A stretch of 32,000 nucleotides of DNA from assembly GCF_021054785.1 (NCBI RefSeq), contig NZ_CP088239.1, positions 1,800,001 to 1,832,000 of the forward strand, given 5' to 3'. The translations under genes and the position numbers were made by a program. Origin of the DNA: Tannockella kyphosi (GTDB lineage: Bacteria; Bacillota_I; Bacilli_A; Erysipelotrichales; Coprobacillaceae). The notes below the pieces were generated by a model. That model did no database searches. It was not told where the DNA came from and saw only the letters and a program-made list of their open reading frames with translations. Every line of letters starts with the position of its first letter. Within the stretch, counting starts at the first letter, position 1. This document shows, in pieces, positions 722-28,996 of this stretch.

Positions 722-738
722 ATTTCCACCTTTATTTC

Positions 739-6032: not shown

Positions 6033-6073
6033 ATGTGCATTGTATTGATAATGCACATATATATTGTTATAAT
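6033..6073 (+). promoter_or_regulatory. relB/dinJ promoter with overlapping inverted-repeat operator
   Basis: TTGATA (6045..6050), 17 nt, TATAAT (6068..6073). Inverted repeat ATGTGCATT (6033..6041) / AATGCACAT (6050..6058) spans the -35 element. Confidence 0.6.
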
Positions 6074-6104
6074 GAATATACTAATAATAAAAGGAGTTGA
6101 TTAT

Positions 6105-8581: not shown

Positions 8582-8592
8582 GGAGATAATTT

Positions 8593-10691: not shown

Positions 10692-11882
<1,191 letters not shown>

Positions 11883-12200: not shown

Positions 12201-12229
12201 ATATATTGTATAGTTGGAGGTATAAATAT

Positions 12230-13835: not shown

Positions 13836-14309
13836 TCAATTTTTATAAGAAATTAACGTCGCTAACAAACCTTCAAAATCAGTATTTCCATCAGATTGAA
13901 TCAAACCCGTATCCGCTTTAGAAAATAGATTCGACAGTATCATTGTAGATATCTTTTCATCAATCTTTCCGACATTTAGTAAAGATAAATAAAAATAGGT
14001 TAACACATATTTTTGCTTGTATTCTTCGCTAAGATGTTTTGAAGAAATTATCATTTTTATAAAAACTCTAAGAACATAGATAATTAAACATACCATCGAG
14101 AGCAAAATGACACTACTGTAAACAGGCATATCTTTACTAAATAATGTTATTGAAAAAACAGTTTCATTTATTGTTATCTCCGGTGTTAAAATAAGACCTA
14201 GCAACATCATCAATAAAACCGACAAGGCTAACGTTGCAACACTCCAGTGAATTGTACTTTTTTCGTACTCTTTCGATTTTTCATCAAGAAAGTTAGCCGG
14301 CTCTTCCAA
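13836..14309 (-). CDS. Hypothetical membrane protein (157 aa, TTG start; possibly a fragment of a longer gene)
   Basis: Two clear hydrophobic segments (ATLALSVLLMMLLGLIL and SSVILLSMVCLIIYVL). I recognised no family motif. The start codon and RBS are weak. Confidence 0.35.
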   Translation of the reverse strand: MEEPANFLDEKSKEYEKSTIHWSVATLALSVLLMMLLGLILTPEITINETVFSITLFSKDMPVYSSVILLSMVCLIIYVLRVFIKMIISSKHLSEEYKQKYVLTYFYLSLLNVGKIDEKISTMILSNLFSKADTGLIQSDGNTDFEGLLATLISYKN

Positions 14310-14834: not shown

Positions 14835-15009
14835 AAATAGATAATTTGTTCAATTAAAGCAGCATCCTACCCTTTAACTTACTTATTTCTCTTGAATGTC
14901 TTTCTAGTATTAGTTTAATACTCTCTAATGCTTTATTATACAACGTATCCATACTATACAAGTTCATTTTCCTTCTTCTATTATTATTTTGGCTTTAAAA
15001 GATACTGAC

Positions 15010-15202
15010 GTACAGCAATTTCATCAGCATGATTCTTATGAACACCTGTAATTTCTCCTTTATCCTCCACTCCAGAAAACAATCGTCCTCCCTCAGCATT
15101 AGTCATCAAAAGAATAGCTTCAATAAACTCATTATCTTTTAGTTGTTTAACATCCCTTTGATATTTGATTTTTAATAACTACTTGCTAGGTATAATTCAC
15201 AT
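15010..15202 (-). pseudogene. N-terminal remnant of a COG2865 (AlbA_2/Schlafen-type) gene, paralogue of 24995..26641
   Basis: Reads M*IIPSK*LLKIKYQRDVKQLKDNEFIEAILLMTNAEGGRLFSGVEDKGEITGVHKNHADEIAV against the intact MRIIPSKETLKIEFKSDVKELKDNELIEAVLGMANTEGGQLFLGVEDDGVITGVHKKHADEIGV. It has two nonsense codons and is truncated after about 64 codons. Confidence 0.8.
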
Positions 15203-15225
15203 AAAAACACCCACTAAACGCACTC

Positions 15226-15271
15226 TAACGCGCGCGTGTGTTTATTTCAATAATTTTAACGCGCGCGTGTG
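15226..15271 (-). promoter_or_regulatory. Degenerate copy of the (CG)n double-box promoter, upstream of the COG2865 pseudogene
   Basis: TAACGCGCGCGTGTG occurs at 15226..15240 and 15257..15271, offset 31 bp, the same spacing as 26665/26696. On the minus strand TTGAAA, 17 nt, TAGAGT is embedded. Confidence 0.6.
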
Positions 15272-15317
15272 AAAGTGCGCAATGTAAACATTACTTTTAT
15301 AATTACCTATCTCAATT

Positions 15318-15382
15318 CTTTATAAACATCTTTCTATCTCTTTTCTATCACTATTCTCTTTCTATCACTGATAGAATACAAT
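15318..15382 (-). promoter_or_regulatory. Remnant of the tetO-like promoter/5' end of an 18586..19875-type gene
   Basis: Near-identical to 19868..19950, including CTATCACTGATAG (15362..15374) and the ATGTTTA start. An 18-bp deletion lies between two GATAG repeats, and no gene body follows. Confidence 0.65.
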
Positions 15383-15425
15383 TTTTCATTCTTTTTTAAA
15401 ACAAAAAACTCTCCTAAGAAAGTTT
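15383..15425 (-). repeat. R1: truncated array repeat (left flank plus terminator hairpin only); terminator of the ATPase gene
   Basis: tttttcattcttttttaaaacaaaaaACTCTCCTAAGAAAGTT, hairpin 15407..15424. Homology ends 10 nt from the stop of 15435..16637. Confidence 0.75.
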
Positions 15426-15434
15426 CCTGTCTTC

Positions 15435-16637
15435 TTAACATAGCAAGAAATCTACTATATTTTGATGAATAATACCATTTCTACTCATATCAAATTCATC
15501 ATAAGATATTACATACTTTGGATGATTATCTGATATACTTTCTAATACCGAAAACTCATGTTCAACCACTTCTTCACTTGCAAGCAAATATGCTACTTGA
15601 ATATAGATTTTTTCACTTTGTTTTCTAGCAATAAAATCAATTTCTTTCGTTCCATTTTTACCAACCGTAATAGTATATCCTCTACGTAGTAATTCTACAT
15701 ACACAATATTTTCAAACATAAGATTAATATCTTTCCTATTTCCACCAAATACCGCTTCTCTTAATCCCTGATCAACAAGATAATACTTCTCATTGACCGA
15801 TAGAATCTTTTTACCTTGTATATCTTCTCTTTTCACCCTATAAAATAAATAAGCAGATTCACATGCTCTAATATAATTTAAAACTGTTTCTGGAGAAACA
15901 ACTCTCCCTTCATTTTTAAAATATTTTGAAATGTTCGTTGCAGAAAAGGTAGTTCCTATGTTTGTTGTAACATATGCGATAATGCGCTCCAGTAAATCTA
16001 CATCACGAATATTATTTCGTTTTACTACATCTTTTAACACTAGTGCACTATATAAATCTTTAAGATACATCTTACTTGGTTCTACATCAAATTGTAAATT
16101 ACTAAGATACGGCATACCTCCCATAGTTAAGTATTGTTTAAAAATATCATTAGGACTACTATTAGGAAATAGTTTATTGTAACTCATTGCAAACTCTTCT
16201 AAGGAAAAAGGATAAATAACAAATTCAACATAACGCCCTGATAAATAACTTGCAAGTTCACTAGATAGTAACTTTGCATTTGATCCAGTAATATAAATAT
16301 CACAATCAAATTCCACCCTAAAAGAATTAATTGCTTTTTCCCAATCCTTTACTTCCTGTATTTCATCAAAGAATAAATATACTTTATCATTATTATCCAA
16401 AATGAATTCACTTACTTTATCATGCAATGCGCTTGCTGATAAAATATCAGCATGCCTCATATCTTCAAAGTTAAACTCTATAAACTGTTGTTTATTTACG
16501 CCCTGTCTTAATAATTCTTCTTGTATAAGTTTTAACATAACTGACTTCCCACTTCTACGTACACCTGTTAATACTTTTACCAAATCTTTATTTATAAATG
16601 GCCTGATTTTTTTTAAATACTGTTCACGTTCAATCAT
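15435..16637 (-). CDS. AAA+ ATPase of the AAA_14/DUF4143 family (400 aa)
   Basis: Walker A VLTGVRRSGKS, Walker B LFFDEIQE, C-terminal KEIDFIA...YIQV motif. ATG at 16637 follows GAGGTG. The track start at 16670 adds 11 unsupported codons. Confidence 0.85.
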   Translation of the reverse strand: MIEREQYLKKIRPFINKDLVKVLTGVRRSGKSVMLKLIQEELLRQGVNKQQFIEFNFEDMRHADILSASALHDKVSEFILDNNDKVYLFFDEIQEVKDWEKAINSFRVEFDCDIYITGSNAKLLSSELASYLSGRYVEFVIYPFSLEEFAMSYNKLFPNSSPNDIFKQYLTMGGMPYLSNLQFDVEPSKMYLKDLYSALVLKDVVKRNNIRDVDLLERIIAYVTTNIGTTFSATNISKYFKNEGRVVSPETVLNYIRACESAYLFYRVKREDIQGKKILSVNEKYYLVDQGLREAVFGGNRKDINLMFENIVYVELLRRGYTITVGKNGTKEIDFIARKQSEKIYIQVAYLLASEEVVEHEFSVLESISDNHPKYVISYDEFDMSRNGIIHQNIVDFLLC

Positions 16638-16706
16638 TAGAATCACCTCACTAATATTATAGTATACCACTTATATGTTTTATTCAATCAAATATGATAG
16701 TTTTAA

Positions 16707-16758
16707 CAGTTATAACCGTGATAATTGGTATATTTATATATTTTATCAGTTATAACTG
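16707..16758. promoter_or_regulatory. Two CAGTTATAAC(C/T)G palindromes upstream of the ATPase gene
   Basis: CAGTTATAACCG (16707..16718) and the perfect palindrome CAGTTATAACTG (16747..16758), offset 40 bp, lie 70-120 bp upstream of the start. Confidence 0.4.
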
Positions 16759-16887
16759 CTAAAATATATTTATTTCGTTATGCTTTTAGAATTTCAACAA
16801 TAACATTCCTGTCCCTTAAAGTCGTGACAATAAATCAAGTAATCTTATTTGTAATATTCTTTAGCTTCTTCTATAACTTTATTTATA

Positions 16888-17066
16888 AATAAAAAAACTC
16901 TCCTAAGAGAGTTCAAGTTCATGCATAAATCTAACAGTTTGAAGTATTATAACTATCTTTTTGTTATAAATATTCGTTATAAAACAAGAGTTTTTATAGT
17001 GTTTGCATCTTACGAGCATCTTAATCAAATGCACTCAAACAAAGTTTACATCGTATTATGTTCATA
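16888..17066 (-). repeat. R2: full array repeat (subfamily A core; right arm shared with R5)
   Basis: Hairpin AACTCTCCTAAGAGAGTT at 16896..16913, then gttcaagttcatgcataaatctaacagtttgaagtattataactatctttttgtta...tttttatagtgtttgcatcttacgagcatcttaatcaaatgcactc...cgtattatgttcata. It ends 4 nt from the VOC stop codon. Confidence 0.85.
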
Positions 17067-17069
17067 TTT

Positions 17070-17564
17070 TTAATAAGCACCCTTAGAATAAGTCACTTCA
17101 TAGCTATGCGTATAAATTTCGAATACAATACCAAATGGATCTTCAACATAACACATTTTATATGGTTTTTCATTTGGATAGTATTCCTTGATAGGCATAC
17201 GTTGTTTACCACCATGAGATACAATTTTTTCAATCATACCCTCAATATCTGGATCCTGCACAGAAAAATGGAAAAGACCTGTATTTTTGAATTCAAATGG
17301 TTGCGTTTTTTTATCGTTATCCACAAACTCAAATAGTTCTATTCCAATGGCGTTTGAAGTGACCATGTGAGCAATTTTGAAATCTCCATGCCCTTTACCG
17401 AATACTTCCTCGCACATAATTCCGATTGCAGAAGTATTTTCCTCTTTGATAACTGATGGTTCCATTACAACATACCAACCCATTACCTCGCTATAAAACT
17501 TAACCGCCCGTTCTAAATTAGACACAGACAAACCTATGTGTGAAAATGCTCTTGGATAATTCAT
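17070..17564 (-). CDS. VOC-family (glyoxalase/bleomycin-resistance/dioxygenase fold) protein, 164 aa
   Basis: FSHIGLSVSNLERAVKFYSEVMGW... and ...LFHFSVQDPDIEGM...DPFGIVFEIY are the paired beta-alpha-beta-beta-beta module signatures. Confidence 0.75.
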   Translation of the reverse strand: MNYPRAFSHIGLSVSNLERAVKFYSEVMGWYVVMEPSVIKEENTSAIGIMCEEVFGKGHGDFKIAHMVTSNAIGIELFEFVDNDKKTQPFEFKNTGLFHFSVQDPDIEGMIEKIVSHGGKQRMPIKEYYPNEKPYKMCYVEDPFGIVFEIYTHSYEVTYSKGAY

Positions 17565-17638
17565 TTTCGTACCTCCTTTCGAGATACTTTAATAATATAG
17601 TAATATAAAGATTAAGAGAATAACGTACTTTTTTGTAC

Positions 17639-17980
17639 CTATGTATTATCAATCATTATTTCATTTTCACTAGCATATTCTTTTGAAAAATCACAAAATC
17701 CCTCCACAAGAGGAATAAGTCCTTTGTAGCGCGGTGAGAGTGAATATACTACATTAAGTGGTTTCTCACATACCACAGTCCTTACTAATATATTGCTTAA
17801 CTCAAGCTCCTTTAATTGTGTGACAAGCATTTTATGTGTTATATCAGGGATACCTCTTTGCAGTAAAGAAAAACGATTATCTCCATTTAAGATATGCCAC
17901 AAAATCCTCATTTTCCATTTCCCACCTAGCAAATCCATTGATAACAGCAATGCACAAGTGTATTGTTTTTTTATCTTCAT
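17639..17980 (-). CDS. HxlR-family winged-helix transcriptional regulator (113 aa)
   Basis: C..LLSMDLLGGKWKMRILWHIL.G..RF..L.R.IP.IT.KMLVTQLKELE...IV.R is a typical HxlR/MarR-like signature. It lies directly upstream of the VOC gene. Confidence 0.8.
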   Translation of the reverse strand: MKIKKQYTCALLLSMDLLGGKWKMRILWHILNGDNRFSLLQRGIPDITHKMLVTQLKELELSNILVRTVVCEKPLNVVYSLSPRYKGLIPLVEGFCDFSKEYASENEIMIDNT

Positions 17981-18245
17981 CTTACATTCCTTATTATATA
18001 AATTTTAATTGTTCTTACTTTTTTATTAACATATTTTATTGTAAAACAAATACCAACTACAATCAATGTATACAAACCATATATTTGAGTATTAGTATAT
18101 CCTATATAAATCAGTATTGTTATAGTAGTGAATAGACTTATACATACAATATCCTACAAATGCACCATTACAAATATTTTGCATACCGTTCTTGTTTCAT
18201 AACAAATCAGGCTTCATCTAATATAAACACCCTATATATGCAAAT

Positions 18246-18430
18246 TTTATCATACTAGACTTACGCATTCAATGATGGATAACAAATTAAAAACTCTCCT
18301 AAGAGAGTTCAAGTTCATGCATAAATCTAACAGTTTGAAGTATTATAACTATCTTTTTGTTATAAATATTCGTTATAAAACAAGCATTTTTATAGCATTT
18401 GCATATTATGAACAACATAACAACATCGTA
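18246..18430 (-). repeat. R3: full array repeat (subfamily A core; left flank and right arm shared with R6)
   Basis: Left flank ttatcatactagacttacGcattcaatgatggataacaaat, hairpin 18292..18309, core as in R2, arm ...gcatattatgaacaacataacaacatcgtac. Confidence 0.85.
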
Positions 18431-18477
18431 CTAATTACAATAATGGTTATTCAATATTCATTGATTGTTTTATTTTA

Positions 18478-18512
18478 AACGCACGGATAAACGCACGCGT
18501 GCGTTTATCGCA
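18478..18512 (-). promoter_or_regulatory. Orphan CG-box element (promoter-only remnant) containing a 22-bp perfect palindrome
   Basis: AAACGCACGGATAAACGCACGCGTGCGTTTATCGC is colinear with ctAAACGCACtctAACGCGCGCGTGTGTTTAT at 15212..15244. The palindrome ATAAACGCACGCGTGCGTTTAT is at 18487..18508. No downstream gene follows. Confidence 0.5.
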
Positions 18513-18585
18513 TTACTAACATATCTAAACATACATCACTCTTTTTGGTTTGTCAGATCACTAATAAATATTAGAAAAATACTGT

Positions 18586-19875
18586 TTATAACTGATCTGC
18601 TAGCATGTATTTTGTGTTTTTTCCATTTCCTACTTTTACAATAATACCTAGTTTAAGCATTTCACCAATAATACTGTTAGCTCTGGTTACTTTAACATCT
18701 AACAATTCTTCTATTGATAGACGTGTGATATATTTGTTATTTTTTAAATATTCAACTACTAAATTATGTGTTTTTGATAAACCTATTGTGTCATTATTCA
18801 TATTTGGAAGAGTAACTCTAAATGCACCATCTGCATTTTCAAATACTGGTTTATTGATGCATTTATTGTAAGAACTCATTATTTTACCAACACCAATACC
18901 ATAGGATTCAATTAATTGCATTCTATAAAATAATGCTGCTAATTTTTCATTTCTTGCTTGTGATGCACCTAAAAGAATAGCTTCTATCGACATCCCAGAA
19001 ACAAGGCCTCCTAAAGAAACAATCTCAATTTTATTGGAATACACATTAATAAAAGTATCTCCACTATAACTATAATCTCGATGTACGATTGCATTTAATA
19101 ATGCTTCTCTTAATGATAATTCCGGATAATCTTTTTGATCAATTCTTAATAAGCCATCAAATGATGCACTTGTTCTATTATATAACTCAAGTGTAGCATA
19201 TGCATCATTTAATTGTTTAAAAATAGAACCTTTAAATTCTTTTCTATCTATAAAAACACTTTTATCATTGCCTTGAAATACAGCAAGTTTAATAGAATGA
19301 ATACATTCATCTGATGTTAGTAAAGCAAGATTTGTATACATTTCATCATTATTGATAAAACCTAAATTATGCATTTGAACCTGACCAAACTCTAGGTTCC
19401 TTTTTTTCATTTCTTCATTCATTGTATTGAAATGTAAATTTTGTTCAATAGAACGACTATTCTCAAAAGAATCTCCATCTGTTAATTTTATCATCTGGCG
19501 AATTGCATCTTGTGATGCAGGAGCAGAAGATGTCCCTTGTCTAACGTAGACACCTGATGATTTCATTCCCTTATCTTTAAGATAATAAGGTTTTCTTGTT
19601 CCCTCTTCAACAGTTACTTTGATGATATCTTTATTTTCTTCTACTAGTGATTCCACACGTATAAACATCATAGCATCAGGTAAGATATTATCACGAAGAA
19701 GATTCGTTATCGCTAACATAACTTCATCAACATCATTTATTCCAACCACTTCACCACTATCAGCAATTCCTTCATATATTGTTCCACCATCACAGTTAAT
19801 AAATGCAATGACTTCTTTCTTCAAATCTTGTGTATATTTTTCTTTTAACTCTACTTTATAACCCTCTTTAAACAT
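18586..19875 (-). CDS. COG2865-type protein: AlbA_2 (Schlafen-like) N-domain + HATPase_c_4 + C-terminal wHTH (429 aa), paralogue 1
   Basis: N-terminus EGYKVELKEK...NCDGGTIYEGI, central LREALLNAIVHRDYS, C-terminus ITRLSIEELLDVKVTRANSIIGEMLKLGII. RBS AAAGGAG. Confidence 0.8.
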   Translation of the reverse strand: MFKEGYKVELKEKYTQDLKKEVIAFINCDGGTIYEGIADSGEVVGINDVDEVMLAITNLLRDNILPDAMMFIRVESLVEENKDIIKVTVEEGTRKPYYLKDKGMKSSGVYVRQGTSSAPASQDAIRQMIKLTDGDSFENSRSIEQNLHFNTMNEEMKKRNLEFGQVQMHNLGFINNDEMYTNLALLTSDECIHSIKLAVFQGNDKSVFIDRKEFKGSIFKQLNDAYATLELYNRTSASFDGLLRIDQKDYPELSLREALLNAIVHRDYSYSGDTFINVYSNKIEIVSLGGLVSGMSIEAILLGASQARNEKLAALFYRMQLIESYGIGVGKIMSSYNKCINKPVFENADGAFRVTLPNMNNDTIGLSKTHNLVVEYLKNNKYITRLSIEELLDVKVTRANSIIGEMLKLGIIVKVGNGKNTKYMLADQL

Positions 19876-19879
19876 CTTT

Positions 19880-19945
19880 CTATCTCCTTTCTATCACTAT
19901 TCTCTTTCTATCACTGATAGTATCATGTTTTGTGATAGAATACAA
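19880..19945 (-). promoter_or_regulatory. Promoter of paralogue 1 with a tetO-like palindrome and reiterated GATAGAAAG half-sites
   Basis: Minus strand: TTGTAT (19945..19940), 17 nt, TACTAT (19922..19917). The palindrome CTATCACTGATAG (19908..19920) overlaps the -10 element. Further half-sites lie at 19932..19938, 19891..19897 and 19880..19884. Confidence 0.55.
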
Positions 19946-19960
19946 CTTTTTATATAAAAT

Positions 19961-20127
19961 TATCCCCTTTTCATTCTTTTTTAAAACAAAAAACTCTCCT
20001 AAGAGAGTTTAAGTTTATGCATAAATCCAACTGTTTGGAGTATTATAATTATCTTTTTGTTAATGACTAAAGTACATAAAATAAGAGTTTTTATAGTGTT
20101 TGCATCTTATAAGTATCCTAACTATAG
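19961..20127 (-). repeat. R4: full array repeat (subfamily B core; arm shared with R0)
   Basis: Flank tatccccttttcattcttttttaaaac, hairpin 19992..20009, core gtttaagtttatgcataaatccaactgtttggagtattataattatctttttgttaat..., arm gcatcttataagtatcctaactatag. Confidence 0.85.
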
Positions 20128-20224
20128 TCATACAACAATAGTGCTTTTTTACTAGCACATACTGATATAACACGTAATCTTGAGTATATCACCCAAAAAT
20201 GAAGACTAAAAATAGTTAATCCAT

Positions 20225-21670
20225 TTAGCTATAATACTTCTGTGATTTACTCTTAGGTTTTTCCGGTAATGTCATTTTAAGATTTCCACTTTCTATCAAT
20301 GGTAAAACAATTGTATTCATTGCATAATACTGTGTTTTGCCTAAATACTTAGCTAACTCAGATCTTGTTCTCGGTGTTTTACAAAATTCAATAAGTTCTT
20401 CAACCTCGTTTACCTCTGTTTTTCCACTATTAGATATTTTGAGTTTAGACATGACACTATTCTTTAGAATCACAGTAAATGTTCCTCGTCTATTAACAAA
20501 TTCAGGAGGACAAAGACTCATTTTTTCCATTTCATAGTGAATAGTCGGAATACCAGAATATCTATTTTCTGCTGCTTTTTGTACCTCCAGTATATGGGTC
20601 AATGTTTGGTTTCTTGTATCTGCATGAGCCTTTCCTAAACCATCAACAGTAATTCTACCGTAAAGACCTCCTTCATTTGTAATTTCAAGTCGATCACTAT
20701 ACATTACAATTCTTATAGGTGCCCCTTCTGTATGAATACTATAATCTCTATGCATTAGAGCATTTAATATAGCTTCCCTGACTGCTTTAATCGGGTATTC
20801 TGGTTTATCATGTCGTTTTCCTTCATCATCAATAATTGTTTTTTCTCTCATGTTTCTTTTTACAAAAGCAACAGCTTCTTCTAACATTTCAGCGATAGTA
20901 CCCTCTATTCTCTTATTAGAAATAAATCGCTCTCCTTCATCTCCTGTCTGACCCATGATAGTTCCAGGAACAACTACTGCAGTGATGCAGAGTTGTGGAT
21001 AAGTAGCTTGTGGATATTTTGAAAAACACATTATCCCTGAAAAGGTTGGATTTCCACCCTTTATCACTCCCATTAAATGAAGGATTTCATCGTTTGAAAG
21101 CCTTGAAACATTAGGTTTATTTTCTTTTATATTTAGAATATACTTTTCAAGTAATATATCATCTAGTATAGAAAAATCAGTAGAATCAGCAATTCTAATA
21201 TCATCCTTAATTCTTCTATGATATGCATCATAGCTGTAAATTTCATAATCACTCATAGGTTCATCTGCTTCTGCCACACGAATATATGAACCTTTAACCT
21301 TACCTGCACCTTTATAGTAAACAGGTCTATCTGCAATGTCTACTCCAGGAATTTCAGCTGAAACAACCATCTTATTTTCAATCATTGCAACTGTAAATAG
21401 TGGCCTAACTGCAATTTCCATTTGTTTGCATTGTTCAGCAACTTTATGTTGTAAATCTTGAGGATCGTAGACACCAACTATTTCAAAATCCTTTTTCTCA
21501 TCTAATCCAAATAGGATAGTACCTCCACCATCTTGGTTTGAGAAACTTGAAAGTGTATCATATAATTTTGTGAGTGTTCTCTTTTGAACTGCTTTCACTT
21601 CAATATACTGCGTTTCACAATTATATTTTTGAATAGTTTTTACCAAACTAACTAAATCATCTATTTGCAT
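20225..21670 (-). CDS. COG2865-type protein (AlbA_2 + HATPase_c_4 + wHTH, 481 aa), paralogue 2
   Basis: ETQYIEVKA...NQDGGGTILFGL, VREAILNALMHRDYS, C-terminal RTRSELAKYLGKTQYYAMNTIVLPLIESGNL. RBS AGGAGGG. Confidence 0.8.
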   Translation of the reverse strand: MQIDDLVSLVKTIQKYNCETQYIEVKAVQKRTLTKLYDTLSSFSNQDGGGTILFGLDEKKDFEIVGVYDPQDLQHKVAEQCKQMEIAVRPLFTVAMIENKMVVSAEIPGVDIADRPVYYKGAGKVKGSYIRVAEADEPMSDYEIYSYDAYHRRIKDDIRIADSTDFSILDDILLEKYILNIKENKPNVSRLSNDEILHLMGVIKGGNPTFSGIMCFSKYPQATYPQLCITAVVVPGTIMGQTGDEGERFISNKRIEGTIAEMLEEAVAFVKRNMREKTIIDDEGKRHDKPEYPIKAVREAILNALMHRDYSIHTEGAPIRIVMYSDRLEITNEGGLYGRITVDGLGKAHADTRNQTLTHILEVQKAAENRYSGIPTIHYEMEKMSLCPPEFVNRRGTFTVILKNSVMSKLKISNSGKTEVNEVEELIEFCKTPRTRSELAKYLGKTQYYAMNTIVLPLIESGNLKMTLPEKPKSKSQKYYS

Positions 21671-21731
21671 AATACAACCCTCCTAAGTATATTTACTTAT
21701 AATATGCTATTTTAAACAAAATTATTCAATA

Positions 21732-21807
21732 AAATAAACAAAATTATCTATATAAATTTTGTTTATTTATAATTTTAATCTAATTTTACTTATTATTTTG
21801 TTTATTT
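21732..21807. promoter_or_regulatory. AAATAAACAAAATT inverted repeat plus a third half-site upstream of paralogue 2
   Basis: AAATAAACAAAATT (21732..21745), 9 nt, AATTTTGTTTATTT (21755..21768), a perfect 14-bp inverted repeat. A further ATTTTGTTTATTT lies at 21795..21807. Confidence 0.4.
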
Positions 21808-21914
21808 CTGATATTTTTAAAGTATTTTTCTTTATTTTTTCTTTACATAATTTTCTATCACAATTTTCTTTCTACCATTACAGAATACATCTTCCGCTAT
21901 ATATAATTCTTCTT

Positions 21915-22130
21915 TTATCCCTATTTGTTCATTTTAAAACAAAAAAAGAACTCTCCTAAGAAAGTTCAAGTTTATGCATAAATCCAACTGTTTGGAGTAT
22001 TATAATTATCTTTTTGTTAATATATATCCTTTATGAAATAATGTTTTTATAGATCCTTGCATCTTATAAGCATCTTAATCAAATGCACTCAGACAAGTTA
22101 AATACTAGTTTACTACGTATTATGCTCATA
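21915..22130 (-). repeat. R5: full array repeat (subfamily B core; right arm shared with R2)
   Basis: Flank ttatccctatttgttcattttaaaac, hairpin 21948..21967 (GAACTCTCCTAAGAAAGTTC), arm gcatcttataagcatcttaatcaaatgcactcagacaag...cgtattatgctcata. It ends about 12 nt from the stop at 22142. Confidence 0.85.
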
Positions 22131-22141
22131 CTCCTCAGCAC

Positions 22142-22651
22142 CTATGATTTTTTGCGAGTTAGAATTATACCAACAATCGACCCAATTAATGCAATTGGTG
22201 CAATTCTTACAAATAACCATTCAATGCCGTGTAAAATTGTTCCTGCAACAGCTAAATCAGGCTTACTATAATTCCATCCCAAATAAGAACTATCTAAGAA
22301 ATATAAAATCACAAAAATTGCTACAATAATTGCACACACCGAAATAAATATCCAGTGAACTAGTTTTCTGCTTCTTACACTTTTTTGTGACAACTGTAAG
22401 TTAATAACCTCTAATTTTTCTGAAATTACTTTGAGATCACCTTCTCTTTCTTCTGCTATAGTTTCACCAAACATTGTGCTTACTGGAATTTCAAGAACTT
22501 CTGACATAGTTACTAACGTTTCAGAATCTGGAACTGATAATCCTTTTTCCCATTTTGAAATAGTTTGTCGTACGACATTCAACTTAATAGCAAGTTCTTC
22601 TTGTGAAAGTCCTTTTGATTTTCTAATAGTTTTAATATTTTCACTTAGCAT
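22142..22651 (-). CDS. XRE-family HTH protein with C-terminal transmembrane segments (169 aa)
   Basis: MLSENIKTIRKSKGLSQEELAIKLNVVRQTISKWEKG (HTH_3). Hydrophobic segments WIFISVCAIIVAIFVILYF and IAPIALIGSIVGIIL. ATG at 22651 follows AAGGAGG. The track start at 22726 is unsupported. Confidence 0.8.
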   Translation of the reverse strand: MLSENIKTIRKSKGLSQEELAIKLNVVRQTISKWEKGLSVPDSETLVTMSEVLEIPVSTMFGETIAEEREGDLKVISEKLEVINLQLSQKSVRSRKLVHWIFISVCAIIVAIFVILYFLDSSYLGWNYSKPDLAVAGTILHGIEWLFVRIAPIALIGSIVGIILTRKKS

Positions 22652-22799
22652 AACAAATACCTCCTTTGTTTGTACTTTGATTTTAGCAGATATTTGCCCG
22701 TTGCCACAAGCAACGCATATTAACATTCACCATAATAGGCATAAAGGGTATATAAATAATCTTTAGTTAATTATAACATTCTTTTCGTTTATGACAAAC

Positions 22800-23816
22800 T
22801 CACTTAGTACCTATCGTCTTTTCTAATTCTAACAAGTTATATTCTTTATGAAGTTCTCTTCTTAATTCTTCTTCACTAGGTAAGTATAGTTTATATCTAG
22901 ATGCATATACGTTACTATTTTTAGGTAACGTATATTTTACTAAGCTTTCACTTTTATCCACGCATAACACAATACCAATAGGTGGATTATCTTCTTTACT
23001 ACTTACTTTTTCTTCATAGTAGTTTACATACATTTGCATTTGTCCTAAGTCTTGGTGCGTTAAGTCCCCTATTTTTAAATCAATAATAACAAAACACTTT
23101 AATAAATAATTATAGAATAATAAGTCAATATAAAAATGTCTCCCATCAAAGGTAATTCTTTTTTGTCTTGCTATAAAAGAGAAACCTCTTCCTAATTCTA
23201 ATAAGAATTTTTGTAAATGAGAAATTAAAGCACTTTCTAATTCTTTTTCACTAAAAGATGCCTGATCAGGAAGTCCTAGAAACTCTAATACATAAGGATC
23301 TTTAATAATATCACTTGGTGATTTTAATAATTCATCTTCATCTGACAAGTTATCTTTCATAGTTTTCCCATCTTTACTAGATAATAACCTTTCATAATAA
23401 AAGGAGTGAATTTGTCTTTCTAGTTGCCTAGTACTCCAGTTAGAATTTACACATTCTTCTTCATAAAAATTTCTAGCTTTTTCATTTTCCACTCTCATTA
23501 ACAAACGATAATGAGTCCAACTCAATTCGCCACGCAGTGCGTGGCTTTTTGAAAAAGTTAAATAAAATTGTCTCATATCTTTGAGGCTAGAAACCTTAAA
23601 CCCTGTTCCAAACTCTGCAGACAACTCTTTTGATATAGTTTTAATTAAATCACTCCCATACTCTGCTTTTTCCTTTCCGCCTTGTTTTTCTACTATCGTT
23701 CTACCAATTTCATAATATGCTTGTACCATAGTATTATTAGTTACTTGATATACTTTATCTCTAGCTTGATAGACAATATTTCTTATATCATTTACTATTT
23801 CTTTTTCTAATTCCAT
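22800..23816 (-). CDS. DUF1016/YhcG-family PD-(D/E)xK nuclease-like protein (about 338 aa)
   Basis: The N-terminal part QAYYEIGRTIVE...GK...YG..LI..LS..L matches the YhcG N-domain. C-terminus IDLLFYNYLLKCFVIIDLKIGDLTHQDLGQMQMYVNYY carries D...D-x-K. ATG at 23816 has RBS AGAGGAAA. An alternative start lies at 23852. Confidence 0.75.
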   Translation of the reverse strand: MELEKEIVNDIRNIVYQARDKVYQVTNNTMVQAYYEIGRTIVEKQGGKEKAEYGSDLIKTISKELSAEFGTGFKVSSLKDMRQFYLTFSKSHALRGELSWTHYRLLMRVENEKARNFYEEECVNSNWSTRQLERQIHSFYYERLLSSKDGKTMKDNLSDEDELLKSPSDIIKDPYVLEFLGLPDQASFSEKELESALISHLQKFLLELGRGFSFIARQKRITFDGRHFYIDLLFYNYLLKCFVIIDLKIGDLTHQDLGQMQMYVNYYEEKVSSKEDNPPIGIVLCVDKSESLVKYTLPKNSNVYASRYKLYLPSEEELRRELHKEYNLLELEKTIGTK

Positions 23817-24177
23817 TACTAGTTTCCTCTTTTCTTTTGTTCTTTTCATCATATTATTTAATTACTTTCTCATTAAGTTATACGTATTTTACTAAACAAT
23901 TACTTTTAAATAATAAAAAGCCTTTCTTCTAACTTCATAATATTGTGAAGTAGTTAATAGACTTTTTACTGAAATTCTTATTTAATTGTTTGAAAAATGA
24001 GTAAATCTATGTATTTATATAAAAACCCCTTTTTTATAGTTTATTTAGTTCCTGAATTTTGTACGATAAGGACCAAAAATAGCTTAAAATTGTGTTTGTT
24101 TTAGTACAAAAAGATAACTTTTCGTTCAAAAGGAAAATTATGTTGATTATATCTATGCAATTTGTTTCGGCCTATTA

Positions 24178-24346
24178 TTATACAACTTCTACCAATCTCA
24201 CCTTAGCATCAGGATCATCGTTGTAAGGTATTACTGCCTTGACGTGTTCTTCTACTTCCCTATTCTTATTGTACTACTACTGCTAAATAAGTTATCATCG
24301 TCACATCTCATAGTTTTTATTTAAGTATCTTTTTTGTTTTCATCAT
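24178..24346 (-). pseudogene. Frameshifted remnant of a small secreted/lipoprotein-like gene
   Basis: A strong RBS AGGAGGAATT precedes ATGATGAAAACAAAAAAGATACTTAAATAA, only 9 codons. Downstream frames continue as ...MRCDDDNLFSSSSTIRIGK and EVEEHVKAVIPYNDDPDAKVRLVEVV*. Confidence 0.3.
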
Positions 24347-24409
24347 AATTCCTCCTAAATAGCGATATGTTTGTTCTCTGTTTTTAGAACTTACTAGTTA
24401 GAAAGTATC

Positions 24410-24436
24410 AAAAAAGACTAGAAATTAATCTAGTCT
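24410..24436 (-). terminator. Terminator of the small membrane protein gene
   Basis: Minus strand: AGACTAGA ttaatt TCTAGTCT followed by TTTTTT, about 35 nt after the stop at 24470. Confidence 0.7.
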
Positions 24437-24469
24437 AATCCACAGGGTATGCTAATATTTTTTATATTC

Positions 24470-24718
24470 TCAATGATTAACTAATTGAATAATTCCTGCT
24501 ATAACATTTAAACTAGCAGCTATTAAAAATAATGATTTCATATATATATTTTTCCCTGTAATTTTATCGTTAAAGAACATAAATATAATAAGTACCGATA
24601 GACATAAAGGATTTAATCCAGGAATCATATTTCCAGTTATTACATAAATCACAGAAAGAGCTATTACTATTACACTAAAAACAATAGTACTAATGTCCAA
24701 AATTTTATCTTTTTTCAT
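24470..24718 (-). CDS. Small membrane protein (82 aa, three predicted TM segments)
   Basis: MKKDKILDISTIVFSVIVIALSVIYVI..., ...LCLSVLIIFMFF..., ...LFLIAASLNVIAGIIQL. ATG at 24718 follows GAGGTG. Confidence 0.6.
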   Translation of the reverse strand: MKKDKILDISTIVFSVIVIALSVIYVITGNMIPGLNPLCLSVLIIFMFFNDKITGKNIYMKSLFLIAASLNVIAGIIQLVNH

Positions 24719-24752
24719 TGTTTCACACCTCACAAAATATAAAAAGCAAATC

Positions 24753-24942
24753 TTATCATACTAGACTTACTCATTCAATGATGGATAACAAATAAAAAAG
24801 AACTCTCCTAAGAAAGTTCAAGTTTATGCATAAATCCAACTGTTTGGAGTATTATAATTATCTTTTTGTTAATAACTAAAGTATATAAAATAAAAGTTTT
24901 TATAGAGTTTGCATCTTACGTGCAACATAACCACAGACATAC
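24753..24942 (-). repeat. R6: full array repeat (subfamily B core; left flank and right arm shared with R3)
   Basis: Flank ttatcatactagacttacTcattcaatgatggataacaaat, hairpin 24800..24819, arm gcatcttacgtgcaacataaccacagacatac. Confidence 0.85.
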
Positions 24943-24994
24943 AATGACGCCATGTATAATAGTGATTTTGTTGTTCTTAAAATAGTTATCTCCC

Positions 24995-26641
24995 CTATTT
25001 TAATTCATATCTCGATGAGTTTCCTTTTCTAATCAACTCTAGTTTCCCACTTTTTACAAGGTTTTTCAATATTCGGTACGCTTGATCTTTAGTTACTCCT
25101 AGTAATTCTACTACATTATTACGAGTAACATATTTTTGCTGTTTAGCAAGTTTCAGTACTAATTCATCATATTTTAAACGATCAATACCTGTCTGCCTTA
25201 CATAACCCACAACATTATCTTGAGCTTTATACACTTTTACACTTAGCATGTAAACCCTTGATTTACCAGTTCCATTCGCTTCCACAAGTCCACTCTCTAT
25301 TAATTTTTCAATATTTGATTTTGTTCTAGATTCACTAATATGCATAGTATCAGACAATTCTTGTATTGAAACTCTTTTTTGACTTTGTAATGTTGACAAA
25401 ATCAATAAAGAATTGATTGGGAGCATTCTTCCAATTCTATTCTCTTCATTAGACAACATCTTAGCAAATGCCAGGTCTGGATCAGCTCTTTGTACAAATA
25501 ACTTTACATAGCTACTTGTCGACTCTGAATAATCAGGAAATGGACGTCCATAAACGATAGACCCTTCATATATACGATCTATCCCTCGACCAGTTCGTTC
25601 TGCTAACCCTATTCTTTTCATTGCATCTGCCAAAGCATGATTTCGACCGTGTGGTTCAACTGTTAATAAATTATGTAAGTTAACCCCTTCAATAAATCCT
25701 CCTGGACTACTTATTGTTAATCCCTCATCTTCTATTGCTAATCGCACCCTTTGTAATATTGAGTAATCTCTATGACAAAATGCGTTTACTAAACCTTCCC
25801 TAAATGCTGATTCTGAAAACTCTGGAATTGGTATCCTAAATAATCCCGATTCCATTTCACGCTCTGGATTCCATGCCTTTAAGTAGTTTTCAAATATTTC
25901 AAACGTTGCTAGTAAAGGTTTTGAAAACTGTTCATTTACCCTAACTTGTGTTCCTTCAAGAACTTGAAAACTTGATTTTGCAGTAGGCATCAACTCTTCC
26001 AGCCTATCTTCTTTTCCTATCAATAACATGCCTGTTACTGTTGGATATGTTACACCATTTTCTTCTTTAGTTATTCTTAAAGCTTTATCTAAGTCTTCGT
26101 CTGTCAATTCAAGAAGCAATTTGTCCCCTTTTCGCATCTTAATAATGTTTCTAAGTCGCACTCTCTCATTTGGATTTAAATCATTCACTGAGGCATCTGT
26201 AATTATTTGTGCTGAAAAATCCAACAAGCTAAGCTGAGATAAACGTGTATTTATCTCATGTGGATACATTGGTATATTTTCAGGCGAACCATCCAACTTT
26301 AGTCTTCTTCGAAGAATTTTCCCTTCGCTAGAAGCTACAATCGTTCTACTCATAGGTATATCAATCCTTAAAACTTGTTTTCCTTCTTCGATAATTATTT
26401 CCGCTTTAGAAGATACAGACGGAACAGTTTTATTAGCAATTAATGCTACTACACCAATTTCATCAGCATGTTTTTTATGCACACCTGTAATTACTCCGTC
26501 ATCCTCAACACCCAAAAATAATTGTCCCCCCTCGGTATTCGCCATTCCAAGAACAGCTTCAATAAGCTCATTATCTTTTAGTTCTTTAACATCACTTTTA
26601 AATTCAATTTTTAATGTTTCTTTGCTGGGTATAATTCTCAT
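24995..26641 (-). CDS. COG2865-type protein (AlbA_2 + HATPase_c_4 + two C-terminal wHTH, 548 aa), paralogue 3
   Basis: SKETLKIEFKSDV...NTEGGQLFLGV, FREGLVNAFCHRDYS, wHTH-like SIQELSDTMHISESRTKSNIEKLIESGLV and VTRNNVVELLGVTKDQAYRILKNLVKSGKL. ATG at 26641 follows GGAGGTG. The track start at 26689 lies inside the promoter. Confidence 0.85.
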   Translation of the reverse strand: MRIIPSKETLKIEFKSDVKELKDNELIEAVLGMANTEGGQLFLGVEDDGVITGVHKKHADEIGVVALIANKTVPSVSSKAEIIIEEGKQVLRIDIPMSRTIVASSEGKILRRRLKLDGSPENIPMYPHEINTRLSQLSLLDFSAQIITDASVNDLNPNERVRLRNIIKMRKGDKLLLELTDEDLDKALRITKEENGVTYPTVTGMLLIGKEDRLEELMPTAKSSFQVLEGTQVRVNEQFSKPLLATFEIFENYLKAWNPEREMESGLFRIPIPEFSESAFREGLVNAFCHRDYSILQRVRLAIEDEGLTISSPGGFIEGVNLHNLLTVEPHGRNHALADAMKRIGLAERTGRGIDRIYEGSIVYGRPFPDYSESTSSYVKLFVQRADPDLAFAKMLSNEENRIGRMLPINSLLILSTLQSQKRVSIQELSDTMHISESRTKSNIEKLIESGLVEANGTGKSRVYMLSVKVYKAQDNVVGYVRQTGIDRLKYDELVLKLAKQQKYVTRNNVVELLGVTKDQAYRILKNLVKSGKLELIRKGNSSRYELK

Positions 26642-26660
26642 AAAAACACCTCCTAAACGC

Positions 26661-26710
26661 ATTATATCGCGCGCGCGCTTTAATTTCAATAGTTTTATCG
26701 CGCGCGCGCG
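26661..26710 (-). promoter_or_regulatory. Consensus sigma-A-type promoter whose spacer and upstream flank are (CG)n boxes
   Basis: Minus strand: TTGAAA (26689..26684), 17-nt spacer ttaaaGCGCGCGCGCGa, TATAAT (26666..26661). Plus-strand direct repeats TATCGCGCGCGCGC (26665..26678) and TATCGCGCGCGCGCG (26696..26710) are offset by 31 bp. Confidence 0.65.
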
Positions 26711-26790
26711 AAAGAACGCGTAACATCTTCATTTTTTACTTTATATTTATCAATATAATTTAGCACTCCTAAGATGTTATTCATTCTATT

Positions 26791-26895
26791 TATCCCCTTT
26801 TATTTTTTCTTTAAAACAAAAAAAGAACTCTCCTAAGAGAGTTCAAGTTTATGCATAAATCCAACTGTTCGAAAAAATAATAATTATCTTTTTGA
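26791..26895 (-). repeat. R7: native rpsI stop codon, 3' UTR and rho-independent terminator; prototype of the array repeat
   Basis: tatccccttttattttttctttaaaac, hairpin GAACTCTCCTAAGAGAGTTC (26825..26844), then aagtttatgcataaatccaactgtt, identical to R4-R6. ataattatctttttGAGAAC includes the rpsI stop (26884..26886) and its last codons (FSKR*). Confidence 0.85.
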
Positions 26896-27282
26896 GAACT
26901 GTGGTGCACGTCTTGCTGCTTTAAGTCCGTATTTTTTACGTTCTTTAGCACGAGCATCACGAGTAAGGAATCCAGCTGCTTTTAATGTTGGTCTATAATC
27001 ATCTCCAGCTTGTAATAAAGCTCTTGAGATACCATGACGGATTGCACCAGCTTGACCTGTGTATCCTCCACCATATACATTAACACTAACATCAAATTTT
27101 TCACCTGTGTTAGTTAATTCTAAAGGTTGATTTACGATCATTAATAAAACATCTGATGATAAATAATCTTTAGCAGTTTTACCGTTAATAACGATATTAC
27201 CAGTACCTGGAGTTAAGATTACTCTAGCTACTGATGATTTTCTACGTCCAGTACCTCTGTATTGTACATTTGCCATTGTCAT
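26884..27282 (-). CDS. rpsI: 30S ribosomal protein S9
   Basis: ...[16 protein letters not shown]...[18 protein letters not shown]...[27 protein letters not shown] is unmistakably S9. The start may be the second ATG at 27276. Confidence 0.95.
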
Positions 27283-27849: not shown

Positions 27850-28911
27850 TTATTCTACTACTTCTCTACCTTCTATTAGCTTTAATCCCGTCATTTCTTC
27901 TATCTTAAATTCATAAAAATGGTTATAAAAACATGCTCCCATCGCTATTTTCTCACCATCCTTCAAATAATAATAACCTATCTTATCTCCATAATCATAA
28001 TCATCAAAATCATAAGAGATAACATACTCACTACCATCTATCCCTATAAAAGAATAATAGCCTGCATCTCCTTCTACAGGATAACCTTCTCTTACTAGTA
28101 TTTCATACAAAGAACTAAAGCTTATTCCATAACCATACGTACTCCCTACTATATCATCATAACAAACAATGAATTCTTCTTCATAATCATCTTCGTCTTC
28201 TTGTTCTCCATAATAGATATATACACGATGATAATAACCATCTAGAGCAGTAGCTATTTCTTCTTGAGTAAATGTTTCTATTACTTCATAACGATAATCT
28301 AATGCACATTGAATAAACTCTGCTAACATTTCTTCATAACTAGTTTCATAGCTAGTCATTCCAGATATGTTACCAGAAGTATCGTCATAGGTTTCTATTG
28401 TGTTTGCTAGTAGGTGATCATAAGTTAAATAGTAGCCAATAGATAATCCTTCATATCCTAATTGTTCAAAGGTTGATTGAAGTATTTGAATGTCATTGTA
28501 ACATGCTAGTAACTCTTCTTTGTTTGTATAAGACCCTTGTATATTAGCAGAAAATAAGCCCTCTTCATCTATAGAAGATACTACCTCTAATCTCTCTAAC
28601 ACCGGAAGGTCATCATAAATAAAATCAATAACTGCCGCGTTATAATCATTCCACAAACTATTTGAAACCCACTCATTGCCCCAATAAAAATCATCAATTA
28701 CATGAAACACTAAGCCAGTATCATCTACTGTTACTGTCCATACGCTATCTTCATATCCATCTTCCTCTATTCGAATATAACTTGTAGAAGATACTGTTAT
28801 ATCAGTTAGATTTAATTTCTCTTCTACTGCATTTTTAATATCCTTCTTATCATAATCTTCTGTACAACCTGTCAGAAGGATTAATAATACAAATAGCATC
28901 CCTTTTTTCAT
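27850..28911 (-). CDS. Hypothetical lipoprotein (353 aa; acidic and Tyr-rich)
   Basis: MKKGMLFVLLILLTGC is a signal peptide with lipobox LTGC. ATG at 28911 follows AGGGAGAAATATC. I recognised no family. Confidence 0.7.
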   Translation of the reverse strand: MKKGMLFVLLILLTGCTEDYDKKDIKNAVEEKLNLTDITVSSTSYIRIEEDGYEDSVWTVTVDDTGLVFHVIDDFYWGNEWVSNSLWNDYNAAVIDFIYDDLPVLERLEVVSSIDEEGLFSANIQGSYTNKEELLACYNDIQILQSTFEQLGYEGLSIGYYLTYDHLLANTIETYDDTSGNISGMTSYETSYEEMLAEFIQCALDYRYEVIETFTQEEIATALDGYYHRVYIYYGEQEDEDDYEEEFIVCYDDIVGSTYGYGISFSSLYEILVREGYPVEGDAGYYSFIGIDGSEYVISYDFDDYDYGDKIGYYYLKDGEKIAMGACFYNHFYEFKIEEMTGLKLIEGREVVE

Positions 28912-28996
28912 GATATTTCTCCCTTGTAACATCTCTCTATACAAGGATTATACATCTTTCTACAGAAAAATACCGCTCTATTTTTAAGAAAATAAA

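Follow-up and report, generated by a model that had tools for sequence, protein, structure and literature searches.

Three prokaryotic Schlafen genes as probable cargo of integrase-less cassettes accreted at the rpsI 3′ end of Tannockella kyphosi

The DNA considered here (the window) comprises 32,000 nucleotides of Tannockella kyphosi (NCBI RefSeq assembly GCF_021054785.1, contig NZ_CP088239.1, positions 1,800,001 to 1,832,000) and harbors, downstream of rplM-rpsI, a tandem array of six cassettes (15426-26817), three of which carry a gene of the prokaryotic Schlafen (pSlfn) type. The window has a GC content of about 29%, and its minus strand carries all genes from 15.4 to 28.9 kb. Counted from rpsI, the cassettes contain pSlfn paralogue 3 (C1), a small open reading frame (ORF) with a DUF1016 nuclease and a helix-turn-helix (HTH) protein (C2), paralogue 2 (C3), paralogue 1 (C4), an HxlR regulator with a glyoxalase (C5), and an AAA_14/DUF4143 protein (C6), followed by decayed pSlfn remnants (Table 1; the paralogues, also called genes 1 to 3, are numbered by ascending coordinate). 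The cassettes measure 1.2-2.7 kb and hold one to three genes co-oriented with rpsI. Each pSlfn gene sits alone between two copies of a junction repeat, which bears out the single-gene cassettes proposed by an earlier interpretation made from the letters alone (the sequence-only reading). The array is known from one strain only.

The junction repeat is about 150 nt long in five copies (J1 to J5) and is joined by a partial copy at the far end (J6) and a half-length copy overlapping the rpsI end (J0). Read on the minus strand, the core common to all copies consists of CAAAAAGATAA, the palindrome TTTATGCATAAA, and the rpsI terminator hairpin with its T-run. Exactly seven occurrences of the terminator core were counted where 0.03 would be expected; terminator-like sites in general number 13 in the region (3.1 expected), and six of these 13 are junctions. 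All copies other than that of rpsI extend by a further 75 nt or so on the 5′ side, comprising GATGC-N6-GATGCAAAC and an AT-rich inverted repeat, and the repeats are 60-90% identical over 75-150 nt. At the edge of the core, the cassette copies read TTAA/CAAAANGNTAA and rpsI itself TTCT/CAAAANGNTAA; this edge falls on the same rpsI nucleotide in each array-bearing species, and in each of them the core matches the species’ own rpsI codons and terminator. Copies of the rpsI 3′ end, probable attachment sites of site-specific recombination, delimit the cassettes, a feature that goes beyond the sequence-only reading. The latter had placed each Schlafen gene in a cassette directly after a TATCCCC-type repeat. 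This heptamer is not significant as such (three occurrences against 1.58 expected, with 23 of 100 shuffles reaching three) and turned out to be just one piece of a left arm that is longer and conserved; the true boundary is the 150-nt repeat.

Two classes of left arm follow the junctions. Class I (GTTTTAAAA..AAAAGGGGATAA) is conserved in the three Schlafen cassettes and in the remnant. C2 and C5, with unrelated cargo, have a nearly identical arm of about 50 nt, ATTTGTTATCCATCATTGAATG.GTAAGTCTAGTATGATAA (class II; 24745-24793 and 18236-18284), which suggests that left-arm classes may be exchanged independently of the cargo. Rfam and tRNA scans of the window gave no match, and the repeat is therefore no known RNA, nor is there a tRNA attB. 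A dif/Xer-type site was rejected on inspection, as the palindrome TTTATG/CATAAA has its half-sites in the wrong order, lacks a spacer, and is missing from the core of another array locus (L092). An attC-like hairpin between extension and core was also discarded, since just two copies show the 7-bp inverted repeat, which lacks conservation. Exact-pattern scans with the window core and extension retrieved no metagenome or viral contig, and the window repeat is absent from 160 rpsI loci of other species. Short-read assemblies of the organism (Logan contigs L082-L090) break at the junction repeats into cassette-length contigs of 1.8-2.1 kb, so that arrays of this type will be split up systematically, and under-detected, in metagenome assemblies.

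Table 1. Features of the rpsI-associated cassette array, ordered from rpsI outwards
Feature	Coordinates	Strand	Description
rpsI (ribosomal protein S9)	26884..27282	-	Ribosomal_S9 E 1.9e-48 (Pfam); target gene/attB
rpsI last 11 nt	26884-26894	-	CAAAAAGATAA; first part of repeated core
Junction J0, rpsI-proximal att core	26818..26894	-	rpsI end, palindrome TTTATGCATAAA, terminator GAACTCTCTTAGGAGAGTTC, then T-run
Cassette C1	24951..26817	-	class I left arm (AAAAGGGGATAA), CG-box promoter, pSlfn paralogue 3
C1 CG-box promoter	26657-26721	-	-35/-10 at 26689-26661
pSlfn paralogue 3	24995-26641	-	548 aa; Slfn-HisKinase-2xwHTH; ETLKIEFK
Junction J1	24794..24950	-	extension of about 75 nt (GTAAGATGCAAAC arm motif, AT hairpin) and rpsI-end/terminator core of about 75 nt
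Cassette C2	22099..24793	-	class II left arm, three ORFs
C2 small ORF	24470-24733	-	no family match
C2 DUF1016/YhcG PDDEXK nuclease	22800-23852	-	PADLOC PDC-S02 E 6.8e-145
C2 HTH_3 protein	22142-22726	-	Pfam
Junction J2	21942..22098	-	extension and core
Cassette C3	20142..21941	-	class I left arm, pSlfn paralogue 2
pSlfn paralogue 2	20225-21670	-	481 aa; ETQYIEVK; Fic-like_C/wHTH tail
Junction J3	19985..20141	-	extension and core
Cassette C4	18442..19984	-	class I left arm, tetO-like promoter, pSlfn paralogue 1, palindrome AAACGCACGCGTGCGTTT
C4 promoter with tetO-like palindrome CTATCAGTGATAGA	about 19876-19940	-	sequence reading
pSlfn paralogue 1	18586-19875	-	429 aa; EGYKVELK
Junction J4	18285..18441	-	extension and core
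Cassette C5	17046..18284	-	class II left arm, two ORFs
C5 HxlR regulator	17639-17980	-	Pfam
C5 glyoxalase/bleomycin-resistance family protein	17070-17564	-	Pfam
Junction J5	16889..17045	-	extension and core
Cassette C6	15426..16888	-	one ORF
C6 AAA_14/DUF4143 ATPase	15435-16670	-	PADLOC PDC-S01 E 1.5e-157
Junction J6	15400..15425	-	partial core, terminator only
Decayed distal cassettes	14967..15399	-	gene-1-type remnant fused to gene-3-type remnant

The three Schlafen-type ORFs are intact and show the domain order already proposed by the sequence-only reading, SLFN_AlbA_2 and HATPase_c_4 with one or two C-terminal winged HTH (wHTH) parts. Pfam matches to PF04326 and PF13749 have E-values of 8.6e-19 and 2.8e-16 in paralogue 1, 2e-12 and 1.1e-21 in paralogue 2, and 1.7e-16 and 1.1e-14 in paralogue 3 (24995-26689/26641), and all three PF04326 scores exceed the gathering score, the PF13749 matches likewise lying far beyond the Pfam cut-offs. 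Paralogue 3, the longest, has two winged-helix regions, with HTH_24/MarR_2 domains; its correct start is the ATG at 26641, since an AGGAGG ribosome-binding site and a TTGAAA-17-TATAAT promoter lie upstream. Its amino acid sequence agrees at 100% with that of a protein from Tannockella kyphosi. The catalytic motif Ex4ExK is kept at residue 4 of paralogue 1, at residue 19 of paralogue 2, and at residue 8 of paralogue 3, and is conserved across 53 homologues of paralogue 1. An alignment of the three proteins further reveals an invariant N-box-like NAxxHRDYS, and G-x-G motifs in paralogues 1 (GIGVGKI) and 3 (GRGIDRI) that are degenerate in paralogue 2 (YSGIPTI). Their pairwise identity is just 23-27%, in line with the strong divergence noted before, and the ratio of nonsynonymous to synonymous substitutions is uninformative because synonymous sites are saturated at this distance.

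A sequence search of the PDB yielded 3LMM (DIP2311 of Corynebacterium diphtheriae) as the sole match (E 1e-19). The AlphaFold model of paralogue 1 (pLDDT 76.6) also retrieved 3LMM with Foldseek, over its full length (E 5.6e-19), as well as the N-terminal domain of SLFN5 (7cux; probability 1.00, root-mean-square deviation 4.3 Å, 116 columns), SLFN12 and SLFN14, and the GHKL domains of CusS, HK853, and PDK/BCK at probabilities of 0.9-1.0. The predicted structure supports the Schlafen nuclease fold of paralogue 1, to which the sequence-only reading had linked the family, and on sequence grounds the three proteins are classified as pSlfn of the HisKinase/HisKinase-HTH class.

Proteins of this type, i.e. 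prokaryotic PF04326 proteins, were experimentally shown to be anti-phage in 2026, which makes the immunity-type role suspected earlier a reasonable one (Perez Taboada et al., Nat Microbiol 2026, PMC13056530). According to that study, one member cleaves tRNA once a phage protein is sensed, and the catalytic motif is defined as Ex4(E/D)xK (PMC13056530). The commonest architectures among 5,930 proteins are a His-kinase-like fusion (34%) and the same with an HTH (19.2%), and 69.6% of pSlfn genes are associated with mobile/defence regions, 30% not being near defence genes (PMC13056530). The examples proven protective are fusions with DUF262, with Ig-like domains, or with unannotated C-termini (PMC13056530). 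A Schlafen of Enterococcus was reported to protect in a second study (PMC13552941).

The surroundings of homologues differ between the paralogues. The gene-3 subfamily shows 74-84% identity across many Firmicutes; the nearest relatives occupy a different locus in each taxon, are stable over many samples, and have the promoter and a CG-rich box conserved along with the gene. This conservation suggests that gene 3 may be a self-contained, probably autoregulated module. The box (ACGCGYGCG, partly palindromic; 26657-26721, and upstream of the homologues in L171, L175, and L178) recurs across distant taxa and is very unusual for a genome of 29% GC; it may represent an operator, an insulator/terminator, or the boundary of a single-gene mobile unit. 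Relatives of paralogue 1 reach only 55-65% identity and adjoin a Mob_Pre relaxase and a DpnI system, or insertion sequence (IS) elements and a STAND-like ATPase, or sit between two integrases. As to whether orthologues elsewhere are stable housekeeping genes, this holds in part for gene 3, whereas the gene-1 homologues are found in mobile or defence contexts. The Schlafen family is partly, not uniformly, tied to mobile/defence regions, which agrees with the published figure of 69.6% (PMC13056530).

Beyond the intact genes, traces of lost copies were identified. The pseudogene formerly placed at 15010..15202 is real and larger than noted: 14967-15280 shows 82-86% nucleotide identity to the CG-box promoter of gene 3 and about 100 of its codons, with an immediate stop (ATG-TGA). 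The orphan tetO-like promoter (15318-15382) also stands, with 15318-15377 matching the promoter of gene 1, its ATG, and four codons at 93% identity. The third candidate, 18478-18512, is a perfect palindrome (AAACGCACG/CGTGCGTTT) about 70 nt past the stop of gene 1; it is not demonstrably a promoter, as had been claimed, and counts as a plausible trace of the gene-3 subfamily because an identical box, AAACGCACGCGTGCGTTT, flanks a gene-3 homologue on both sides in another genome (upstream and just downstream, in L178). Where at least three further copies had been proposed, there are two solid traces and one that is plausible on sequence. Both gene-1 promoter copies (19876-19940 and 15318-15382) contain CTATCAGTGATAGA, identical to the central 14 nt of tetO, and repeated TCTATC/GATAGA half-sites; the window holds no TetR gene. 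The operator-like palindromes are presumably bound by the wHTH domains of the proteins themselves.

Comparable arrays were sought in other species. The RpsI relatives are Erysipelotrichales/Coprobacillaceae, and the synteny of the window with every one of them ends exactly at the rpsI stop codon. Among about 119 rpsI loci with enough downstream sequence (compared loci or contigs bear L numbers), L004, L068, and L092 carry, downstream of rpsI, further copies of the respective rpsI 3′ end with its terminator, and L099, L100, and L097 have a shorter rpsI-end repeat of about 17 nt. The architecture seen in the window, built on the respective rpsI end, is present in four other Erysipelotrichales/Firmicute loci, whose cargo comprises AbiEi/AbiEii and RhuM-Fic (L004), an HTH-DUF3990 pair (L068), PDC-S01, a truncated PDC-S02, RhuM-Fic (PDC-S23), and SatD-DUF3307 (L092), and ToxN with PDC-S01 (L099). 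The cassette ORFs point in the direction of rpsI in L004, L068, L092, and the window, the ToxN of L099 being antisense. The acquisition hotspot suspected by the sequence-only reading is genuine, and it is not specific to one family: the sister arrays carry AbiE, RhuM-Fic, DUF3990 pairs, SatD, and ToxN, and the window PDC-S01, PDC-S02/DUF1016 with HTH, and HxlR with glyoxalase. A DUF3990 pair also occurs elsewhere in the window: 236-1593 (minus strand) encodes an HTH-DUF3990 protein of 284 aa and a 161-aa partner, 67% and 66% identical to the first cassette pair of L068 and similar to PDC-M10/M13/M42, about 14 kb beyond the array and without a flanking junction repeat.

The rpsI 3′ end is an established attB of several tyrosine-integrase families of ICEs (integrative and conjugative elements) and IMEs (integrative and mobilizable elements), and both tandem accretion and integrase-less, att-flanked cis-mobilizable elements (CIMEs) have been described (PMC5357655, PMC5704250). 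Elements with a recombinase are also found at this site among the compared loci. In L098, rpsI is immediately followed by the genes for an antisense-oriented tyrosine integrase of 380 aa and for a Mob_Pre/MobV relaxase, the same gene pair as in streptococcal IMESag-rpsI. Intact homologues of this integrase lie directly downstream of rpsI in L091, L010 (Holdemanella), L038, L107, and L103, L077 has a distant match (23% identity) at the same position, and C-terminal fragments occur at the rpsI end in L095, L094, L099, L104, L106, and L108; the rpsI end is accordingly occupied by an integrase in 7 loci and by fragments in 6 more. The family has 1,583 database matches. After the rpsI end comes a terminator that each of these elements brings along itself, and then a set of three or four direct repeats of the kind usual for arm-type integrase sites (TATGCAAC four times in L098, TATGACAC three times in L038, AGGACAC three times in L107, and TAAGAAGCAAG/ATATGCAAAA/TAAGATGCACAAAG in L091).

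Two observations connect such elements with the cassettes. Firstly, the right junctions have ATGCAA(C/A) at a distance of 39-43 nt upstream from their rpsI-end copy, whether the unit bears an integrase or is an integrase-less cassette; in the window, the motif takes the form TAAGATGCAAAC. Secondly, L099 (10393-12200) has at its rpsI end a 1.7-kb ToxN unit with a left arm almost identical to that of the L098 IME, and this unit contains a 99-aa integrase remnant (93% identity). Judged by these sequences, it links the IME and cassette states and appears as a snapshot of IME-to-cassette decay. The proximal and distal terminators of L099, L100, and L097 are not alike; the distal one is similar to the L068 rpsI terminator, which fits an element that brings a replacement terminator and displaces the host original. 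The cassette ORFs of the window contain no integration or transfer genes (Pfam, NCBIfam, PHROGs), and no recombinase is common to the array loci. A 364-aa ORF beside rplM was considered as a recombinase and rejected: Pfam, NCBIfam, PHROGs, and PADLOC gave no match to it, and the other array loci lack a conserved counterpart. The pair of integrase and relaxase that defines an IME is present in L098 and not in the window cassettes; an intI beside attI with attC sites, as in an integron, is likewise missing, no recombinase lying near rplM-rpsI; and the att-delimited structure of a CIME is found, with seven rpsI-end/terminator copies delimiting six units.

Taken together, it is probable that the three pSlfn genes are cargo of integrase-less, CIME-like cassettes accreted at the rpsI attB. 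The cassettes would owe their insertion at the rpsI 3′ end to site-specific recombination, each consisting of a left arm with its own promoter, one to three co-oriented genes, and a right arm of about 75 nt with the ATGCAA-type site, and closing with the last 11 nt of rpsI and the terminator. As every cassette supplies such a copy, rpsI would always be restored and the units would be transcriptionally insulated from each other. The supposed recombinase is a tyrosine integrase that is specific for rpsI and works in trans, as carried in sister species by IMEs at exactly this site; by such an enzyme, the window cassettes would have been inserted and perhaps could still be moved. They would be minimal derivatives (CIMEs) of IMEs or cargo-only hitchhikers. 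New units would enter beside rpsI, with the older ones degenerating at the opposite end, and the outcome would be an integron-like store of defence and stress genes. Each pSlfn would most likely be a self-contained, probably autoregulated single-gene anti-phage module: by homology, the ATPase and wHTH parts may sense or gate, and the Schlafen domain may cleave RNA (tRNA) on activation.

Several points weigh against this interpretation. Searches gave neither an empty site nor a circular intermediate nor a different order of the cassettes: all relatives diverge right past the rpsI stop and share no downstream flank, and a second strain with a different array was not detected, an exact look-up of RpsI giving no match and the RplM and gene-3 matches being short contigs 100% identical to the window, as are all other contigs of this organism. 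An integrase or integrase remnant is absent from the window (tblastn with six integrases, E > 0.5) and from the arrays of L092, L004, and L068, and no Tannockella label appears among the 120 best integrase homologues. Cassette C5 (HxlR and glyoxalase) is no defence system. Homologues of gene 3 (77-84% identity) are solitary between metabolic genes, as expected for a regulator. The defence role of HisKinase-class pSlfn is a putative one, and the Enterobacterales HisKinase-Slfn fusions tested gave no protection on the phage panel used (PMC13056530). Moreover, the model of paralogue 1 is of moderate confidence, with residues 91-143 below pLDDT 55 and low confidence in part of the N-domain. A single contig with an unusual junction, L084 (Logan SRR27046595, cassette C1), opens with CTCCA, a core of the J1/J2 type, where the rpsI-proximal copy would have TTTCG, and CTCCA recurs at its other end. 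As evidence for an excised circle it was dismissed: the segment shared by J0 and J1 is exactly 30 nt, i.e. k-1 of a 31-mer, so that an artefact of the de Bruijn graph is equally possible.

The alternative that best survives, still an unlikely one, regards the COG2865 proteins as ordinary transcriptional regulators without an immune role that became incidental cargo. Their wHTH domains and the operator-like palindromes in their own promoters would suit regulators, as would the solitary, stable, and highly conserved gene-3 orthologues, the negative HisKinase-Slfn tests, and the 30% of pSlfn genes away from defence genes (PMC13056530). It is opposed by the retention of Ex4ExK in all three proteins and in homologues, by the nuclease fold supported by the structural model, by the company of PDC-S01 and PDC-S02 in the array and of AbiE and ToxN in the sister arrays, by the gene-1 homologues in mobile and restriction-modification contexts, and by the experimental protection conferred by other pSlfn classes (PMC13056530, PMC13552941).

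The sequence-only reading had favored repeated gain, divergence, and loss of one family at a hotspot under diversifying selection, and a scenario in which one family was duplicated, diversified under positive selection, and lost repeatedly at a family-specific hotspot is very improbable. It would account for three intact copies and two or three remnants of one architecture within 12 kb and for the class I left arm common to all Schlafen cassettes. Against it, the paralogues share so little identity, and each has far closer relatives (55-84%) in other taxa than within the array, the nearest ones differing and lying in other phyla-level groups; the search results suggest that the three proteins belong to separate deep clades with foreign sister sequences, and the three genes are therefore separate imports and not the result of local diversification. 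In addition, their promoters and operators are unrelated (CG-box vs. tetO-like), and half of the cassettes carry other families. An origin without a site-specific recombinase, whether through homologous recombination, through slipped duplication of the region around the rpsI terminator, or in the manner of a classical integron (IntI/attC), appears hardly credible: the junction repeats are long and similar enough for some homologous exchange, the window lacks a recombinase, and co-oriented cassettes would befit an integron, but the core starts at the same rpsI nucleotide in five species with different sequences, the right arms have the arm-type motif of integrase-bearing elements at this very site, an integrase remnant lies inside the L099 cassette, the direct repeat of L099, L100, and L097 is too short for homologous recombination, and there is neither an IntI nor any attC-like imperfect hairpin, the junctions being conserved in sequence.

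A further-reaching version of the CIME-like interpretation is put forward tentatively and with doubt. According to it, the rpsI end in Tannockella and related Erysipelotrichales would be a dedicated, integron-like platform for the acquisition of defence genes, where cargo-only mini-cassettes (own promoter, one system, an arm of about 75 nt, and a core with terminator) are excised and inserted in trans by the rpsI-specific tyrosine integrases of visiting IMEs, and where immune modules of one gene each, among them three Schlafen-HisKinase sensors of distinct function, are stacked, reordered, and exchanged. If this were true, a strain could swap immune modules without a recombinase in the array.

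Outside the array, the window contains further genes of this kind. Beyond the distal end of the array lie two fragments of IS3-family transposase (11091-11853), the plus-strand gene of another PDC-S01 ATPase (12206-13576; E 1e-183), and the C-terminal part of an AbiZ (13836-14309; PADLOC), and the variable, defence-rich region therefore reaches well past the repeat-bounded array. On the plus strand at 8267-10473, a 104-aa MazG-like pyrophosphatase ORF (PHROG 3301) is situated directly 5′ of a 626-aa Schlafen group 3 helicase-domain protein (DUF2075, PF09848, E 7e-106) with weak PADLOC likeness to Nhi, AbiO, and PDC-S41; the two may form a separate defence pair outside the array. An ORF for a RelB/DinJ-family antitoxin (6033-6374, plus strand; TIGR02384, E 1e-21) has no evident toxin partner among ORFs of at least 60 aa. 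On the other side of rpsI, the 364-aa ORF and an IS1182/IS5-type DDE transposase (27850-30680) are placed between rplM and a conserved upstream gene (31099-31782), which adjoins rplM in relatives.

The Schlafen-HisKinase(-HTH) proteins make up more than half of the prokaryotic Schlafens, yet their phenotype is undemonstrated. Three diverged members in one array, with compact promoters/operators of their own and intact motifs, offer a ready comparative set for the study of sensing and of wHTH autoregulation. The locus further indicates that, in Firmicutes of the gut or fish gut, a classical ICE/IME site at the rpsI 3′ end can gather numerous minimal cassettes that lack an integrase and hold a single system each; the array would be an integron counterpart based on a tyrosine integrase. 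Repeated rpsI ends provide a simple genomic marker for defence cargo, and the cargo recurring in four other species (PDC-S01, PDC-S02, RhuM-Fic, AbiE, the DUF3990 pair, and ToxN) lends support by context to several PADLOC candidate systems.

Compared with known systems, the window proteins share with the HisKinase/HisKinase-HTH classes of pSlfn the PF04326 domain, the Ex4(E/D)xK motif, the fusion to a His-kinase-like ATPase with or without HTH, and the defence-gene surroundings. Unlike the proven classes, their architecture has no demonstrated defence phenotype, and unlike published pSlfn, three deep-branching members occur together, each with its own operator-bearing promoter. DIP2311 (3LMM), the only solved relative by sequence and by fold, has the same full-length architecture; it differs in its identity of only about 15% and is a structural-genomics entry of uncharacterised function.

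The array itself resembles the streptococcal rpsI-site IMEs and CIMEs in target gene and position, in the direct repeat that restores the rpsI end, in tandem stacking, and in the presence of integrase-less derivatives, and those IMEs, like relatives of the window, have a tyrosine integrase and a MobV relaxase at the site. Accretion at rpsI is known in streptococci; here the units are unusually miniaturised and numerous (six, not counting remnants), with uniform junctions and many defence candidates among the cargo. While rpsI-site IMEs span about 9-10 kb, the window units hold one to three genes on 1.2-2.7 kb, and in contrast to the streptococcal cases, six of them follow one another in the orientation of rpsI, with 150-nt junctions that are nearly uniform and without traces of an integrase, in a host from the Erysipelotrichales and with a cargo mostly of defence candidates. 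With integrons, the array has in common an ordered series of small, co-oriented cassettes without a recombinase of their own, a fixed anchor site, and distal decay. It departs from them in having no adjacent IntI, in junctions that are sequence-conserved att sites including the end of a host gene instead of folded attC sites, and in cassettes that are each equipped with their own promoter and terminator.

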